From sequence record ON286972: DNA of 64,000 nucleotides; one strand, 5' to 3'. This document shows positions 23,526 through 37,629 of this stretch, one piece after another; positions within the stretch are counted from its first letter, which is position 1, and every line of letters starts with the position of its first letter. The DNA is from Escherichia phage A4. Made by a program: the position numbers and the translations under genes. The notes beneath the pieces were generated by a model, which was not told the DNA's origin, searched no databases, and saw only the letters and a program-made list of their open reading frames with translations.

Positions 23526-23609
23526 TATTATTGAATATTGGTCTAAATGGGTCTAAAAAATCCACTTAGACCAATAAATACCCAATAATAACTAATTTAA
23601 GGATGGATT

Positions 23610-24239
23610 ATGGCTATTTCCTTTTACACCACAATGGAAGTTACTGGTGTTGTTAAATTCTCGAAAGCTGAATTTAAAAAACCAATATTAACATTTGATA
23701 CATCGTCTTTTAATATTATCAGAACACACGAAATTTCTGGTGCAGATAATCATTTAAGTAATTCAGTGATTACAACACTAGGAACAGATAGCAACCAATC
23801 GTTACAGATTGCTGCGTGGGCTGGGATGACAGAGACTAATAACGGTGTTAAAATACAAGCACGCACAACAAATGACACAAACAGTACTGAATGGGTTACA
23901 TTATATGATAGCTCCAACAGTACTGTGACAGTATTACCACAAGCTGATAGTTACGATATAGATACCAGTACTGGTAATAAAGTTTTTAATTTAACTCTAA
24001 ACAAACCAAACACTACAATTAATATCCTTCCTAATGCTAAAACTCAAGTATATGATTGCACTGTTATCATAGAACAAGGCACAGGTTCAAATCTTGTAAG
24101 CTGGAGTTCTAATGTGAAATGGTCATTCAATCGTCAAGTTCTTCTTTCATATGAACAATCCCAAAAAGATATAATTTCCCTAGAAACCTATGATGGTGGT
24201 ATTACATGGTACGGTGCTCTTATTCGAGCAGGGGTATAA
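23610..24239 (+). CDS. hypothetical protein (Ser/Thr/Asn-rich, possibly virion-associated)
   Basis: 209-aa ORF, composition like fibre proteins. Confidence 0.4.
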   Translation: MAISFYTTMEVTGVVKFSKAEFKKPILTFDTSSFNIIRTHEISGADNHLSNSVITTLGTDSNQSLQIAAWAGMTETNNGVKIQARTTNDTNSTEWVTLYDSSNSTVTVLPQADSYDIDTSTGNKVFNLTLNKPNTTINILPNAKTQVYDCTVIIEQGTGSNLVSWSSNVKWSFNRQVLLSYEQSQKDIISLETYDGGITWYGALIRAGV

Positions 24240-24240
24240 A

Positions 24241-27024
24241 ATGACAAAATATAACATAGATAACGTTATACAATTACTTTATGGTCATCATAGATTTTTA
24301 GAAAGAAATACAGGTGATACAGTAGATCCAACAAAACAGCATTACGTAATAAACGATCAAGGTGTATTAGCAAATAACCGTCATTTTATTAATTTCAGTG
24401 CAATGGAAGGTCAACCAAATGGTGACGGGACAACTGAGGGTCAAAGTCTTTTGATCATTGGTTATATCTATGCTTATCTTGCAACTAATGATGAAATGTT
24501 TTTGGATAAAGCTAAGTATTATTGGGACGCATATCACAAATATTTTTATGCTAATAGACAGTTTCCAGATCCACCACGTCCATTACAATGTAACTGGATT
24601 GTGAATGCTAAAGAACCAATACTCGCCAACTGGCCTTTGTCAGATGATGATTGGCCTACTCACGGTGGATTCAAAGGCGTAGAATTTAATTTCATAGATG
24701 GTCAATGTCGTATTCCACATGATGAGCCGTATTATGGACAATTCCTTGATAAAGTTACTTTTGCATTCAAAGGTGCACTTGCATGGAATCAGATTAACGC
24801 GTCAGTACAGGCAATATTACCAGATGGTAGTACTGACTGGGATAACCCTGGTGAACAATATGATGTTGATTGGGTAATTGATTACTTAGGACGTAAAGTA
24901 GATTATAATGGGGATATTATCAGTACTGGACACTATGAGTCAGAAAAAGGAACAGTACAGGTAAAAGACAGAACATTAAATGGTGTTTATAAATTAAACT
25001 TCGCTAATAGACAACCTGTTGAATTTGGTGGTACGTACATCGCACGTAATCAGATGCAACACAACCGTCCATTACATGTTCCTATTACTCTTGACTTTGC
25101 TGATAACGCATCTGATGCTGAATTATGGTTCAGTGATGCTTCTTACTTGTTATATAAAATAACAAAGGAAAGAAAACATTATCTTGGATGGAAATGTTCT
25201 TTACTTACTTGTTATGCATATGGTGACATTGATGCATTTGATAAATTCTTCAGACAAAGTACTAAAGTATCTTCGCCATTTACTGATGGTATTTCATATG
25301 ATTATTTTTATCCAAGTGATGCGATTGCTACATATTCCCGCAACGTTGATGGTTATATCAGAATACGTCAGGAACAAAGTGCACAAAGTACTCTTGAACA
25401 GCAAGCAATATGGTTCAGACTAAATTCTGATTCGAAATTGGTTGTTGATTATGGTGGAATATGTGATGATGGTTCTCCATTAACATTTAAGCCAGTACTT
25501 GACTTATCAAAAACAAAAAGTGATAATGATGCTATAAGATACCGTTGTGGTTTACCACTGAGTACCAGTACTGAAATTAAACACTCTGAAACTCCATTAA
25601 GTGTTTTTGTCCGTGAGAAGAAAGATGATGGTAGCTCTTATATTATGGCTGACAGCCGTTCAGTTGTTGATTATGGGGGAGCCGTATATAAAATGGAATA
25701 TAGTACTGATATTCTTGGTTCCAGAGTTGATACTATATGCGATATCAGTACTGGTGAAGACGGTGGTATAGTTGTAGGATTTTGGTTATTAGATTCAGAA
25801 AAAGCACCTATTAATTCTTTTACATATCGTTCATATGAAGATGATTTTAATATCAGAATCGAAGATGATAATGGATGGCGTTGGTGGTGGATGATTCCTG
25901 CAACACATGGTGAATGGACCACAATAGAATTGAAACCAGAGGATTTACATCTTTCTGGATATCAGCCAAATCACAGCGATGATCCTGACCCAGAAGCCCC
26001 AGTATATAGTGAATTGGAAGATTTCACTCTATTACCCGATACAACACCAATCAATGGAACTGCTAAAATCCAATGGTATTGTATAAATGATATTCCACCA
26101 CTATATACATCCGAAAATGGCGATGACTATACAATGACATTCTCTATTACTGTTTCTGGAACAGCAGCATATTCGGCGTATTTGGGGGATTGTGTAATTA
26201 AAGATTATGAATTAAATTCGTTACGTTACACTCCTGGTACTATTCCATTTTCAAATATTACTGATCCATATGCAAATCAGTACGGTGGGTGGCGTGGACT
26301 ACCATATCCTGGATACCAATACCCAGTAATTTACTGCTTTAAAGACGAACCAGTAGACCATACAAGAATGGGTAATATGTTGGATTTTATGAAAGATTCA
26401 CAAGAATGGTTTACAAACCAATTCGGTACAGTTGGTCCTTGTGCACAGGCATATGTATGGAACCGCTGGGACAACCTCAAATATGGTGAACCTGATACGT
26501 TTACAATGTTACACTGGGGTGATGAAGCATGGAGTGGATATGAACCACGTGCATTCTTTGGTGCGGCTCGTTGCTGGCAAGAATTAGCAGAGCGTGGTGA
26601 AGAACCACCAGTTGAATTGGTTGAGTTCTGTGAGAACTGGATTAACTTTTTAATTCAATTCCAGGATGAAAATGAAGGTCGTTCACCAACAATCTTTAAT
26701 AAAGATGGAACAGTTGAAGGCCCAGCATGGGATTTCACAGGACATATGTGTGGATTGTGGTTGGCAGGTGGTAGTGCATGTGGCTTAGCTGGGTGCAAGA
26801 TTGAACGCTTACCAGAAATGGTTGACAGATTGGTTGATGAATTGCAAAATAACTATGTAATAACAAAACCAGGTTCACCGATGAACGGCTCATGGAGTCC
26901 AGCAGTTCGAGAAGATTCAGACAATGGGATGTTCTTTGGATTTTGGGCTGGTGAAATCATGCGTGGTCTTGGTTTGTACTCAATGTACAGACTGAACTCA
27001 CACAATCGTTATAGTGAATTATAA
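24241..27024 (+). CDS. large hypothetical protein (927 aa), Trp/Tyr/Asp-rich
   Basis: start set at ATG 24241 (MTKYNIDN) rather than overlapping track start 24190. Confidence 0.45.
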   Translation: MTKYNIDNVIQLLYGHHRFLERNTGDTVDPTKQHYVINDQGVLANNRHFINFSAMEGQPNGDGTTEGQSLLIIGYIYAYLATNDEMFLDKAKYYWDAYHKYFYANRQFPDPPRPLQCNWIVNAKEPILANWPLSDDDWPTHGGFKGVEFNFIDGQCRIPHDEPYYGQFLDKVTFAFKGALAWNQINASVQAILPDGSTDWDNPGEQYDVDWVIDYLGRKVDYNGDIISTGHYESEKGTVQVKDRTLNGVYKLNFANRQPVEFGGTYIARNQMQHNRPLHVPITLDFADNASDAELWFSDASYLLYKITKERKHYLGWKCSLLTCYAYGDIDAFDKFFRQSTKVSSPFTDGISYDYFYPSDAIATYSRNVDGYIRIRQEQSAQSTLEQQAIWFRLNSDSKLVVDYGGICDDGSPLTFKPVLDLSKTKSDNDAIRYRCGLPLSTSTEIKHSETPLSVFVREKKDDGSSYIMADSRSVVDYGGAVYKMEYSTDILGSRVDTICDISTGEDGGIVVGFWLLDSEKAPINSFTYRSYEDDFNIRIEDDNGWRWWWMIPATHGEWTTIELKPEDLHLSGYQPNHSDDPDPEAPVYSELEDFTLLPDTTPINGTAKIQWYCINDIPPLYTSENGDDYTMTFSITVSGTAAYSAYLGDCVIKDYELNSLRYTPGTIPFSNITDPYANQYGGWRGLPYPGYQYPVIYCFKDEPVDHTRMGNMLDFMKDSQEWFTNQFGTVGPCAQAYVWNRWDNLKYGEPDTFTMLHWGDEAWSGYEPRAFFGAARCWQELAERGEEPPVELVEFCENWINFLIQFQDENEGRSPTIFNKDGTVEGPAWDFTGHMCGLWLAGGSACGLAGCKIERLPEMVDRLVDELQNNYVITKPGSPMNGSWSPAVREDSDNGMFFGFWAGEIMRGLGLYSMYRLNSHNRYSEL

Positions 27025-27055
27025 GTTGACAACCAACAAACAGTGATATAAACTA

Positions 27056-27087
27056 AGAGAACTTCATGAGAGGTTCTCTTTTTTTTA
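27056..27087 (+). terminator. hairpin + T8 run (terminator or 5' leader structure)
   Basis: AGAGAAC..GTTCTCT stem then TTTTTTTT; a TTGACA-15-TGaTATAAA promoter-like site lies just upstream (27026-27052). Confidence 0.4.
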
Positions 27088-27099
27088 TAAGGTGAAAAA

Positions 27100-27525
27100 A
27101 TGCTAAACGAACAAATCAAAGACGCACTACGTGTACTGAATCGCGAAGTTAGCCGTATCCATAAAAGTACTGATCGTTATAAAGTAATGCATGAAATTAA
27201 ACTAGAATTAGAAGCTATCAATAAGGGTGAATGGTTCCTTGAACCAGAATACCGTACACGTGAACCATCTGACGTTGAAAAAGCAATTGCAAAATTCATT
27301 TCTGGTCGTTATAGTGATGTATCAGAGAAAGATGTACTGATGAATTTACATTTAACCTCCTTAGAAATTGAAGAAAAATTCAAATTTGATTCACTGGACT
27401 GGGTAGAAATGATCATGGAACTTGAAGATGAATTTAAGGTTGAGATCGAAGATAAGTATGAATCAGGTGATACCAGAATCGTACATCTCGTAGCACATGT
27501 ACAAACAATGATCGATAAACGATAA
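27100..27525 (+). CDS. acyl carrier protein-like protein with N-terminal extension
   Basis: FDSLDWVEMIMELEDEFKVEIED closely parallels ACP [23 protein letters not shown] incl. phosphopantetheine Ser. Confidence 0.5.
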   Translation: MLNEQIKDALRVLNREVSRIHKSTDRYKVMHEIKLELEAINKGEWFLEPEYRTREPSDVEKAIAKFISGRYSDVSEKDVLMNLHLTSLEIEEKFKFDSLDWVEMIMELEDEFKVEIEDKYESGDTRIVHLVAHVQTMIDKR

Positions 27526-27570: not shown

Positions 27571-27945
27571 ATGAGTGTACTAGATATTATTGTTTCAAAA
27601 GTACTGATACCGTTCTGGAAACCAATTGCGTTTGTTCTCCTGATGGCATCATGTACTTTTGGAGGCTGGAAGGCTAATACTTTTTATACTGGGTATAAAG
27701 AAAGTATTGAATTAAAAATAGAGAAGAAAGTAGATGCGGCTTTAAGTAAAATTGAAAGCCAAAATACCAAAAACTATGTAGAAACTAAACAGATAATGCA
27801 AAATAATGCAAAGGTAATAGAAACTAAAGTACCAGTTATTATTGAGCGTGAAGTGTATAGAAATGTATGTTTAGATGAAGAAGGGGTAAAACTTTTGAAT
27901 GATCTAAAACAAAATTCACTTGCAGCTAGAGAGAAATTTAAATGA
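27571..27945 (+). CDS. putative i-spanin (Rz-like)
   Basis: N-terminal TM segment, predicted coiled-coil remainder; overlaps downstream lipoprotein gene. Confidence 0.4.
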   Translation: MSVLDIIVSKVLIPFWKPIAFVLLMASCTFGGWKANTFYTGYKESIELKIEKKVDAALSKIESQNTKNYVETKQIMQNNAKVIETKVPVIIEREVYRNVCLDEEGVKLLNDLKQNSLAAREKFK

Positions 27946-28256
27946 AATACATATTAACATTCTTGATTACTTTTATGTTTATCACTGGGTGTTCTAATAA
28001 GGTTCCAGTTCAAGCGTCACCAATAATCACCCAGGAAATATTATTAGAACGATGCGAAGAAGATACACCAATTCCTAAAAAAATTGTTGTTGACTCACAT
28101 GGTAATAGAGGATATGCTGGTGATGAAATTCTTAACGTTCTGACGCGTTGGGATTCCATGTACAATGATTGTGCACTGAGATATGATGCACTAATTGATA
28201 CAATTCGCAAACTCCAAGACCAAAATATTCGTGTTAACATAAAAGTTAAGGAATAG
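27942..28256 (+). CDS. putative o-spanin (Rz1-like outer-membrane lipoprotein)
   Basis: signal peptide with lipobox ITGC; start overlaps upstream TM gene. Confidence 0.45.
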   Translation: MKYILTFLITFMFITGCSNKVPVQASPIITQEILLERCEEDTPIPKKIVVDSHGNRGYAGDEILNVLTRWDSMYNDCALRYDALIDTIRKLQDQNIRVNIKVKE

Positions 28257-28257
28257 T

Positions 28258-28869
28258 ATGTCTAAATATCATGTTTATTATGTAACCAAATTGAGTTTAC
28301 TAGATGAACTCAATCATACTAGTACCAAAATGAAACGTTATACTTATAATGGTATTACTTTCAGATACTTTCCACAAAAAGTACTAACATTCGTTAAGAA
28401 TTGTAAGTGCATTGCTTGTGGCATCGAGGCTACAGAAGTTCGAATCGAACGTTCCAACTGTAGTGATCCGGTATATGGTAAACCGCATTTAAATGTGTAT
28501 GCAGTATGTGGTCTTTATGAAGTTATGATGACTGTAGATCATAATCATCTTGCATCTAAAGGTGGTGCTGATTTGGAGTCAAACTTTAATACAATGTGTG
28601 CGAGATGTAATCAGTTGCGTTCAAATAAAACTGAAACGGTTGATGAATTCCTTGAGAAAGTCAAAAACCGAAATCTACTTGAAGAACATATGAATCGTTA
28701 TTTCAATAAGATTGAGAAGGAAAGTAAACGTCCTACACCAGAAATGCTCGAAGAACGTAGATTGCGTCAAGAGCTATGGGATAACGATCATCTGTGGCAT
28801 GTTCGTGAGTACGGGCGACACATGAAAGCATTAAAAAAGGCACAAAAGCTGTTGGATAAACATGAGTAA
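28258..28869 (+). CDS. HNH endonuclease
   Basis: VDHNHLASKGGADLESNFNTMCARCNQLRSNK (HNH core) plus upstream CxxC. Confidence 0.6.
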   Translation: MSKYHVYYVTKLSLLDELNHTSTKMKRYTYNGITFRYFPQKVLTFVKNCKCIACGIEATEVRIERSNCSDPVYGKPHLNVYAVCGLYEVMMTVDHNHLASKGGADLESNFNTMCARCNQLRSNKTETVDEFLEKVKNRNLLEEHMNRYFNKIEKESKRPTPEMLEERRLRQELWDNDHLWHVREYGRHMKALKKAQKLLDKHE

Positions 28870-28882
28870 TATGTTATAATAG

Positions 28883-28908
28883 GGACTTGAGAAATCAAGT
28901 CCTTTTTT
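28883..28908 (+). terminator. rho-independent terminator
   Basis: GGACTTGA-GAAA-TCAAGTCC then TTTTTT. Confidence 0.55.
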
Positions 28909-29677: not shown

Positions 29678-29679
29678 TT

Positions 29680-29707
29680 GGGACAATACTTTATATTGTG
29701 CTATAAT
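29680..29707 (+). promoter_or_regulatory. promoter (GGGACA-16-TGcTATAAT, extended -10)
   Basis: same AATTGGGACAA..TGnTATAAT architecture as promoter at 60668-60695. Confidence 0.45.
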
Positions 29708-29713
29708 TATATT

Positions 29714-30253
29714 GTAATGGAAAATGTCAGTGGACGTTTTAACAACGGACAAGAAGAACCTACTTCTCTTGAAAATGTAAAGGATAGATGAGCCTTCCCA
29801 CTGAGGCGATGAGCAAAAGAAACCCGTTAGTACCATCCAAGTGCATTCATACAAACGCGAAATAAGACACGGATCACACGGCGACACGGCTCAATAAAGA
29901 ACTCCGATAAGCATACAGAGAGTTCCTCGATAGATGTATAAGGATCGCACCTTACCAGATTTGCTAAGGGAGTTTTACTTAAAACAAGCGGTCAATTTTT
30001 CTACGGGAAAGTTGCACCCAAAATTTGAGTAAAACGAGTACTGAATTGATCGAATAGTTCCAGTACTTTAGTGCAGGGGATGAAAATACCTGCGACCGTT
30101 GCATATGACTGCGATAGAGAGAAACAGAGCAACCCGCTTTCGTTCTCCAAAAATTGGACACCCTTGATCCGTCCAAAATATGGAGAAATTCGCAATTCGA
30201 TAAATTCCGATGCCATCAGCGTCAAAATCAAGAACCTTAATTGGTTCTTTTTT
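29714..30253 (+). ncRNA. candidate ~540-nt non-coding transcript (unclassified)
   Basis: no ORF >60 aa with a ribosome-binding site; only short overlapping ORFs in several frames; bounded by promoter 29680-29707 and terminator 30230-30253; locally GC-richer. Confidence 0.3.
30230..30253 (+). terminator. rho-independent terminator
   Basis: AAGAACC-TTAATT-GGTTCTT then TTTTTT. Confidence 0.55.
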
Positions 30254-30397
30254 AATATCATTCCCCTGCGGGGGGATGAAAATGTCCTCAACAAATCCCG
30301 TCAATCTTTAAAAGTACAATACAATATTAATTAATATGAATGAGTGAGTTATCGTAGATAACGAAACGAATTCTTGAGTTACGAGAGAACGAAGTGA

Positions 30398-36455: not shown

Positions 36456-36540
36456 CCTATAGGTTTGTCATACAATTGGCTAAATAAAATGGGTATTAAT
36501 ATACCCATAATTATAACCAAAAGAAATATCAAGATTTTAC

Positions 36541-36568
36541 TTGATATGAAATTGAAAGATGCTATACT
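36541..36568 (+). promoter_or_regulatory. putative sigma70-like promoter (TTGATA-16-TATACT)
   Basis: upstream of endolysin; followed by 14-bp perfect palindrome TTTCAGTACTGAAA at 36597-36610. Confidence 0.3.
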
Positions 36569-36702
36569 ACTTACATGTACAGAATGAAAGTTACCTTTTC
36601 AGTACTGAAAGTATTGTAGAAAGTCCGATGAGGCTTTTGCAAATGGCCTCATAAGCCCTCTTTGTAATTGCTCATCATAACACGCAAACAAAGGAGGCGT
36701 TT

Positions 36703-37629
36703 TTGACAATAGCGATACAAACACCTAAAACTAAGACAGCTATAGGCTTATTAGTTTCACTTGTTATCATCGCTGCGTTTGGATTTTATGGTTTTTCTCA
36801 ACATGATCGTGCATCATCATCGGGCGAAAGTCAGGTGCACAATTTAAAACCGCAAGTTACACAAATTCAAAAGCAGGAATTACCTAAAGGGTATACACCT
36901 AAAGTAGTTCCAGGCAGCGAGAAACATTATACTGTTGAATACGGTGATAGTTATCATTCGATAGCTAAGAAGTTTAAACCGCATAATGTGTTGTTTGAAG
37001 ATTACGTTACAGTATTGAAGAATATCAATCTTAATGCTAAACTTCATACATCGCAGGGTATCTTTATCCCAACAAAAGAGGATTTGAAAGACGTACTGTT
37101 ACCTGATGTGGTAGTACTTTTCGATTATAATGATCCTGAAATAGTTGCACACATCAAAGAAGCTGAAGGTTCAATTGAATTTCAGTCCAAGAACAAAAGA
37201 CGTTTACTTGGGGGAAAAGTTGGAGTTCCTTTCTACAATTCAAAATTTCATCCTTATAAGGATATGAAAGGTAATTATACAATAGGTTATGGACATTACT
37301 TAGGTAAGAACGAATCTGATGCAATTAAGTACAGAAACGGTATTACCAAAGCACAAGCACATAAACTATTACTTCAAGATTTGAAAAGGACATATAATGA
37401 CTTTACAACTCTAATGAAGAAAAAAAATGCAGTAAATCTTACAAAAGACCAACAACGTATTCTCTTTGACATGGCTTACACGATGGGTGTTGATAAGTTG
37501 GCCTCATTTAATAAACTATGGAGAAGTGCTGAAGCTGAAAATCATAAGAAGTTTAAAAGAGAAATCAAAAATTCCTTATGGTATAGGCAAGTAACAAACA
37601 GAGCGGATACTTTGTTAAGCTCAATCTAA
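36703..37629 (+). CDS. endolysin: signal-anchor + LysM-like + lysozyme domain
   Basis: TTG start after AAAGGAGG; N-terminal TM; YTVEYGDSYHSIAKKF LysM-like; NYTIGYGHYLG resembles T4-lysozyme TIGIGH core. Confidence 0.65.
   Translation: MTIAIQTPKTKTAIGLLVSLVIIAAFGFYGFSQHDRASSSGESQVHNLKPQVTQIQKQELPKGYTPKVVPGSEKHYTVEYGDSYHSIAKKFKPHNVLFEDYVTVLKNINLNAKLHTSQGIFIPTKEDLKDVLLPDVVVLFDYNDPEIVAHIKEAEGSIEFQSKNKRRLLGGKVGVPFYNSKFHPYKDMKGNYTIGYGHYLGKNESDAIKYRNGITKAQAHKLLLQDLKRTYNDFTTLMKKKNAVNLTKDQQRILFDMAYTMGVDKLASFNKLWRSAEAENHKKFKREIKNSLWYRQVTNRADTLLSSI

Follow-up and report, generated by a model that had tools for sequence, protein, structure and literature searches.

Helix II of the acyl carrier proteins (ACPs) is the helix recognised by ACP partner enzymes. 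In the ACP of E. coli, residues D35, E41 and E47/48 form ion-pair contacts with AcpS (bioRxiv 10.1101/2025.01.28.635281). The same protein, AcpP, also has roles that do without the pantetheine arm: the MukB ATPase is stimulated to the same degree by the apo- and holo-forms (PMC8602292), and apo-ACP inhibits glycerol-3-phosphate acyltransferase (PMC3896788). MukBEF is in turn a known phage target, in this case of T7 gp5.9 (PMC7617805). These pantetheine-free roles, with MukB and with glycerol-3-phosphate acyltransferase, are properties of a host protein and serve here as a model for a phage ACP that lacks the attachment serine. ACPs without this serine have been described in the mitochondrial ACP (mACP) of apicomplexans, where it is changed to Phe in Plasmodium and is replaced in Cys/Gly variants in Toxoplasma (PMC8547962). 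The residue that took its place in Plasmodium mACP, Phe113, is needed to bind Isd11, a LYR protein (PMC8547962). The apicomplexan protein retains the ACP fold and is essential with its pantetheine site lost; it docks by means of conserved acidic residues, and binding is aided by a bulky hydrophobic residue located where the cofactor was once attached or close by.

ACPs are frequently annotated in phages, and we know of none with a demonstrated function. Other phage ACPs (phrog_5934 and phrog_4154; for example that of Achromobacter phage Motura and the carrier-domain proteins of phiCbK) resemble the protein described here in being small and ACP-folded, but they are single-domain proteins of ~80 aa, whereas phrog_18343, the family of interest, has an N-terminal hairpin, a fixed place ahead of the spanin genes and a history of serine loss. 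What has been proposed for such proteins is computational prediction only, for example the pairing of a phage ACP with host FabZ (bioRxiv 10.64898/2026.03.01.708874).

The gene lies in a stretch of 64,000 nucleotides from Escherichia phage A4 (ON286972), called the window below, and is an ORF of 141 codons on the + strand that runs from ATG to TAA (27100-27525, stop codon included). It encodes a two-domain ACP-like protein of 141 aa with orthologues in 44+ jumbo-phage genomes. Direct reading of the sequence places a Shine-Dalgarno-like AAGGTG at 27089-27094 (+ strand), with the ATG 5 nt further on. A terminator-like GC hairpin with a T-run (27055-27080, + strand; 11-bp stem, 4-nt loop, T8 tail), recognised by consensus match only, ends the tail-protein gene upstream. 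The N-terminal helical hairpin domain comprises residues 1-45 (27100-27234, + strand), as delimited by AlphaFold2 models and conservation, and is followed by a low-confidence linker of variable length (residues 46-56, 27235-27267, + strand; pLDDT 62 in the model of the window protein), which is the place of indels in family alignments. Sequence and structure matches assign residues 57-141 (27268-27522, + strand) to an ACP four-helix-bundle domain. Within it, alignments locate the motif D97-S98-L99-D100-W101 and the recognition helix, helix II, at 27388-27435 (+ strand); the peptide FDSLDWVEMIMELEDEFKVEIED represents residues 96-118, and S98, the counterpart of AcpP Ser36, is encoded by TCA at 27391-27393. 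Signal peptide and transmembrane segment are both absent, and the product is a cytoplasmic protein of two domains, a hairpin joined by a flexible linker to a C-terminal ACP fold.

The similarity to ACPs is confirmed as being well above chance and more than a chance motif match. BLASTP against E. coli AcpP gave 37% identity over 63 aa (E=6e-8), and the best phmmer match in the PDB was the ACP of B. subtilis (E=1.2e-4), with S98 aligned on the serine of its DSL motif. A family profile searched against the PDB matched E. coli AcpP along the entire ACP domain (E=1.6e-10), and the PHROG family labelled 'acyl carrier protein', phrog_5934, was matched with E=3.8e-11. The best PHROG, however, was phrog_18343, of 'unknown function' (E=8e-42), which covers residues 2-138 and so the full length of the protein; this full-length match, the two domains and the place directly upstream of the spanin genes make the window protein a member of the phrog_18343 hairpin-ACP family. 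The AlphaFold2 model (pLDDT 83.8, pTM 0.64) consists of N-terminal helices at 2-18 and 24-42, a weak linker and a helical bundle at 57-141, and the serine of the D-S-L motif is present at the N-terminus of helix II, in register with Ser36 of the B. subtilis and E. coli proteins. The fold itself appears to derive from a bacterial AcpP-type carrier. An initial annotation made from the letters of the DNA had described an ACP-like C-terminal half with the attachment serine behind an N-terminal extension of about 60 residues, and had made the prediction of a four-helix bundle one of its tests; homology, the predicted ACP fold and the position of S98 on Ser36 all bear this out, and the extension is real, amounting to ~56 aa with two predicted helices. 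A profile search for PP-binding domains, which it had also proposed, gave 19.5 bits with PF00550, below the cutoff of 20.8.

Curated family models place the protein at a distance from AcpP proper. TIGR00517 (AcpP) reaches 28.5 against a cutoff of 70.45, and all NCBIfam ACP models stay far under their cutoffs, so the protein is best called a divergent ACP-like protein and no canonical AcpP or AcpP orthologue. With AcpP (PF00550, TIGR00517), which gives its best matches in sequence and in structure, it shares the four-helix bundle, D-S-L-D at the start of helix II and an acidic recognition helix in which D35, D38, E41, M44 and E47 have counterparts. It differs in its 56-residue N-terminal hairpin and linker, in a loop I that is 5 residues longer, in a Trp that takes the place of Thr39, in the lack of a conserved serine among close orthologues and in that no associated PPTase or FAS genes were found. 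An identity as the D-alanyl carrier protein DltC, the annotation used in fEgEco12, was considered and rejected: TIGR01688 gave 13.4 bits against a cutoff of 52.35, and Pfam searches of 30 window proteins found no AMP-binding ligase nearby. The N-terminal hairpin part had no Pfam match.

Conservation is concentrated on particular residues in both domains. In the ACP domain, these are D97, D100, W101, E103 (E or D), M106, E109, F112, V114 and E115, which lie at the N-terminal end of helix II and along one of its faces; D97 and D100 do not vary, W101, specific to one clade, is invariant there, and E103, M106 and E109 are nearly invariant. The hairpin domain has conserved A9, L10, E16, S23, R26 and Y27. 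S23 is Ser or Thr in all genera and stands directly before helix 2 in the models of both the window protein and a Trp variant, a position that, in these predicted structures, fits a helix-capping role. The idea that S23 might be an alternative prosthetic-group site, served by an RlaP-type nucleotidyltransferase in the manner of CitX/MdcG, was rejected: S23 is Thr in CBB, GAP32 and fHe-Yen9-04, the position is a typical N-cap, and variable genes lie between the ACP-like gene and that of the nucleotidyltransferase.

The initial annotation had taken the DNA to be that of a phage, and the source is indeed a jumbo phage, the region of the window being ~77% identical in nucleotide sequence to Asteriusvirus-like jumbo coliphages (TH47, WPEC3, fEgEco12). 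Full-length orthologues were found in 44 phage records at E<=1e-5 (31 Escherichia, 9 Klebsiella and 4 Salmonella). Divergent members used as queries added Mimasvirus (Pectobacterium CBB, Cronobacter GAP32, Xanthomonas XbC2) and Eneladusvirus (Serratia BF, Erwinia pEa_SNUABM phages, Yersinia fHe-Yen9-04). Among the RaK2-like jumbo phages of Enterobacterales (Asterius-, Alcyoneus-, Mimas- and Eneladusvirus), the gene forms part of the conserved core. A HMMER search of 1.84 billion representatives returned ~10 full-length clusters at 50% identity, all other matches being ordinary single-domain ACPs, and 121Q and RaK2 were the sole matches in a scan of IMG/VR.

GenBank records name the orthologues 'acyl carrier protein', 'acpP', 'D-alanyl carrier protein' or 'carrier domain-containing protein'. 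Since several records already annotate an ACP, the ACP-likeness of the gene is known and therefore not new. In the literature searched there was no experimental work on the hairpin-ACP family, and the clade-specific loss of the serine, the fixed adjoining Trp and the conserved hairpin domain were not described; the fate of the attachment serine appears to be the new part. Annotation of the orthologues is inconsistent between records. In GAP32 it covers the 84-aa ACP part only (L018 2663-2917), while the full two-domain ORF begins at 2501; the product in Salmonella phage SD-15_S21 (P0015) is extended to 192 aa; and the CMSTMSU entry (BFVD A0A2Z5HFQ2), at 432 aa, is an apparent fusion or miscall. 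A further Ser-less protein, one of 276 aa (P0050) found in the search of representatives and external to the phage family, carries an ACP-like domain with LDALDF (Ser to Ala) followed by C-terminal hydrophobic segments.

The serine is not strictly conserved among orthologues. A first alignment of 14 close homologues had Ser at site 98 in 5, Trp in 8 and Thr in 1. In a non-redundant set of 48 sequences, comprising the Asterius/Alcyoneus clade and a sister Salmonella clade, site 98 was Thr in 18, Ser in 11, Trp in 10, Asp in 5, and Asn, Arg, Glu and Lys in 1 each. Among 17 representatives below 80% identity its entropy was 2.47 bits, placing it 110th of 141 sites ranked from least to most variable, with invariant D97 and D100 around it. 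The codons found there (TCA, TGG, ACA, AAC, GAT, TCT) reflect separate substitutions. With E. coli AcpP as the root, a tree of the ACP domain unites the W101 lineages (D-x-x-D-W), the window phage included, in one clade. Loss of the serine is confined to this clade, in which 4 of 15 representatives retain it and the others have W, T, D, N, E or K, whereas all 7 non-W representatives are Ser-bearing. The latter belong to Mimasvirus, Eneladusvirus and the Salmonella clade, and the canonical L-D-S-L-D is kept in every one of them (7/7). The association between Trp gain and Ser loss has a Fisher p of 0.004, a value that ignores shared ancestry; formally, it represents essentially one evolutionary transition followed by many independent replacements of the serine.

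The rest of the protein has remained under constraint. Pairwise dN/dS is 0.12-0.23, also for pairs in which both members are Ser-less, so purifying selection persists despite the loss and the proteins are not decaying. The 121Q-type Trp variant is predicted to have the same two-domain fold (pLDDT 85, with residues 45-54 below 50). These data bear on the explanation that the gene is a functionless, decaying remnant of a captured host acpP, which would account for the loss of the key serine in most relatives. This explanation was already disfavoured and is very improbable, given that dN/dS is 0.12-0.23 in all comparisons, that the gene occupies the same position in at least four genera at 21-40% identity, that both domains have invariant motifs and that a confident fold is obtained for Ser and Trp variants alike. 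Ser, Thr, Asp and Asn are good helix N-cap residues, and together they account for 35 of the 48 residues at site 98, which suggests that only a structural preference is left at this site.

The initial annotation had put forward a phosphopantetheinylated carrier that hijacks host fatty-acid or lipid machinery, and had regarded absence of the conserved serine as an observation that would speak against it. The serine is replaced in most of the clade to which the window phage belongs while selection is still purifying, and this part of the proposal is not supported. That the serine is unconstrained while the protein is conserved argues that the function of the clade is independent of phosphopantetheine. 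The pattern known from mACP, a fold under selection with the serine lost, is found across the clade, the window protein itself being still Ser-bearing. As in the apicomplexan protein, the ACP fold is retained, acidic residues are conserved and there is a bulky hydrophobic residue near the former cofactor site. The two cases differ in that mACP has Phe at the position of the serine itself, while the phage proteins have a fixed aromatic residue at +3 (W101) and a hypervariable serine site, and in the phage context and extra N-terminal domain of the latter.

The best general reading of these observations is that the window's clade has turned the ACP fold into a docking module that works without the cofactor, although we regard it as no more than evenly balanced. 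Ancestrally, the protein of these jumbo phages probably served as a real carrier, modified by the host and fused to a helical hairpin, as argued from the strict retention of Ser in the sister genera; in the older lineages, Mimasvirus, Eneladusvirus and the Salmonella clade, the proteins, with their LDSLD, still look like real carriers. The Asterius/Alcyoneus clade would have begun with the fixation of a Trp one helical turn after the serine. The serine could then have varied freely, with purifying selection still acting on the rest of the protein and above all on the acidic face of helix II. The protein of this clade would then carry no acyl group. Strict conservation of the acidic helix II suggests that the protein docks electrostatically on the basic ACP-binding site of a partner, assisted by the Trp; lying beside the former cofactor exit, Trp101 may replace the hydrophobic contact of the pantetheine arm, in a way reminiscent of Phe113 in Plasmodium mACP. 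S98 of the window phage would be a retained ancestral residue, dispensable for the function that the clade shares.

There are points against the docking reading. The window protein keeps a perfect D-S-L-D context and all the residues for AcpS recognition, and could be a true holo-carrier; 4 of the 15 clade lineages keep the serine, and the S/T/D/N pattern of N-cap residues may be partly structural rather than functional; the association of Trp gain with Ser loss rests on essentially one event; and the ACP reported in Eneladusvirus particles (PMC7760394) would fit a virion-associated role. The first of these points leads to the alternative of a genuine acyl or aminoacyl carrier, in which host AcpS loads S98 and host enzymes supply acyl groups, so that lipid intermediates are diverted or provided, possibly for envelope or lipoprotein-related steps around lysis. 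We consider it unlikely. S98 does fall exactly on Ser36 within D-S-L-D, the equivalents of the AcpS contacts, D97, E103 and E109/D110, are all present in the window protein (bioRxiv 10.1101/2025.01.28.635281), and the sister genera keep the serine in all 7 representatives. Because D97, E103 and E109/D110 are there, host AcpS may still modify S98 of the window protein, and it is a possible modifier of Ser-bearing members in general. However, most lineages of the window's clade carry another residue at the site (W, T, D, N, E, K or R) under selection that is not relaxed, and the scores of all curated ACP models fall below threshold.

The search for carrier machinery also weighs against the genuine carrier. 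Pfam searches of 30 window proteins found no PPTase, ketosynthase, acyltransferase or adenylating (AMP) ligase, the domains recovered being Sir2, NUDIX, RlaP, DUF5856 and a zinc finger. A tblastn search of 50,697 phage records with E. coli AcpS and EntD (E<=1) gave no match in Asterius-, Alcyoneus-, Mimas- or Eneladusvirus; direct inspection covered 64 kb of a genome of ~350 kb, the sensitivity of tblastn is limited, and host AcpS could stand in for a phage enzyme. The initial annotation had likewise seen no PPTase or synthase gene nearby, an impression with which both searches agree. Spanins are lipidated through the Lgt/Lnt pathway of the host, in which phospholipids, and not acyl-ACP, are the donors. 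A role of the protein in spanin lipidation is accordingly unlikely, as acyl-ACP is not used for lipoprotein acylation and the serine is dispensable; this again tells against the genuine carrier, in favour of which the proximity to a lipoprotein spanin, noted previously (PMC7760394), could be cited.

The proximity in question is a constant feature of the locus. Immediately downstream in the window are genes for an Rz-like i-spanin with an N-terminal transmembrane segment (27571-27945, + strand; phrog_1152, E=7.9e-26) and an o-spanin lipoprotein with the lipobox ITGC (27942-28256, + strand; phrog_2425), the start of the latter overlapping the stop of the former by 4 nt; the o-spanin is annotated as such in phages Muenster and XbC2. 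In all 19 loci compared, from four genera and several uncultured relatives, the ACP-like gene is upstream of the i-/o-spanin pair, whose genes have 121-125 and ~100-104 codons, and in 18 it directly adjoins them, the exception (L010) having one ORF of 136 aa between. An HNH endonuclease gene follows (28258-28869, + strand; PHROG match). It is found only in some relatives: it is present in Asterius- and Alcyoneusvirus and missing at the site in a Salmonella-clade contig (L012), BF, CBB, GAP32 and XbC2, a distribution that fits a mobile, homing-type insertion. Another terminator-like hairpin, again a consensus match only, lies after the HNH gene at 28881-28904. The hairpins at 27055-27080 and 28881-28904 bracket exactly the block of ACP-like, i-spanin, o-spanin and HNH genes, which suggests that the block is one transcription unit, the count of hairpins being not above shuffled expectation.

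Upstream is a gene for a tail (fibre) protein of 944 aa (24190-27024, + strand; phrog_2871), the phAPEC6 homologue of which, gp314c, was identified by mass spectrometry as a tail-fibre protein of the virion (PMC7247149). The start of this ORF is probably set too far upstream, since residue 17 is the first that the PHROG alignment covers, and there is an in-frame Met (MTKYNIDNV) at 24241. In fEgEco12, RaK2, BF, CBB, GAP32 and others, the ACP-like gene is not preceded by this tail gene, which makes the latter a variable insertion and no conserved partner; a tail-fibre chaperone was rejected as a conserved explanation for the same reason. A gene for an RlaP-type nucleotidyltransferase (PF10127; 22284-23525 in the window, and related loci L011, L012, L016-L019) is kept 0-5 genes ahead of the ACP-like gene in every genus examined, and in some uncultured relatives overlaps the start of the latter by 4 nt.

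This neighbourhood raises the alternative of an adaptor or chaperone for phage proteins, that is, a lysis accessory acting with the spanins, an assembly factor or a minor virion component. It would be consistent with the position upstream of the spanin pair in 19/19 loci (adjacent in all but one), with the terminator-like hairpins that bracket the ACP-spanin-HNH block in the window and with the tail-fibre gene that precedes the ACP-like gene in Asteriusvirus. Kim et al. remarked on the proximity of ACP and spanin genes in Eneladusvirus, and detected the ACP by LC-MS/MS of purified phage particles (PMC7760394). In phAPEC6, however, the orthologue gp313c is not among 62 virion proteins (PMC7247149), which fits an intracellular role. 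Spanins act in the periplasm, yet the protein has neither a signal peptide nor a transmembrane segment, and many relatives do not have the tail-fibre gene at the upstream position. Because gene order is broadly conserved in these phages and the region is collinear, adjacency to the spanins or to the RlaP-type gene is not independent evidence and is suggestive of a link at most. An adaptor of this kind has, in our estimate, a low probability.

The docking reading can be made more specific. The most likely action of such a module would be that of an unmodifiable decoy of host AcpP, which blocks or retunes an AcpP-dependent enzyme or machine during infection; we tentatively favour a decoy or adaptor that engages a client of host AcpP, although a decoy directed at the host is, taken by itself, rather unlikely. 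With similar reserve, we envisage a cofactor-free pseudo-ACP, made from a captured carrier, with Trp101 as a hydrophobic plug that might jam or re-programme an AcpP-dependent machine of the host, for which PlsB (phospholipid synthesis), AcpS, the lipid A acyltransferases and MukBEF are candidates. The phages offer a natural experiment, in which sister genera keep the cofactor serine and one clade has discarded it yet conserves the remaining protein; serine loss with conservation elsewhere argues that it is the ACP surface that is of use, rather than the arm that carries acyl groups. Should its partner be a client of host AcpP, the protein would represent a new kind of factor for host takeover and a ready-made probe or inhibitor of the network of an essential bacterial hub protein. 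Cofactor-independent ACPs, mainly described from apicomplexan mitochondria, would be extended to viruses, and the pseudo-ACP would be the first viral ACP mimic described. Should the protein of the window phage simply be a holo-ACP, the finding is an ordinary one.

A few other observations concern the window at large. Scans for tRNA genes and Rfam families were empty, and a PADLOC scan for defence systems gave no meaningful match. Three stretches (23526-24189, 29678-30397 and 36456-37263), which the tRNA and Rfam scans included, are unusually long and lack a convincing forward ORF in an array that is otherwise tightly packed and almost entirely on the + strand. Near the start of the window, a Sir2-family gene (1099-1851; PF02146, E=2e-19) is followed by one for a Nudt16-like NUDIX hydrolase (1848-2396; E=4e-19) with overlapping stop and start, a pair that could be NAD/ADP-ribose-related.
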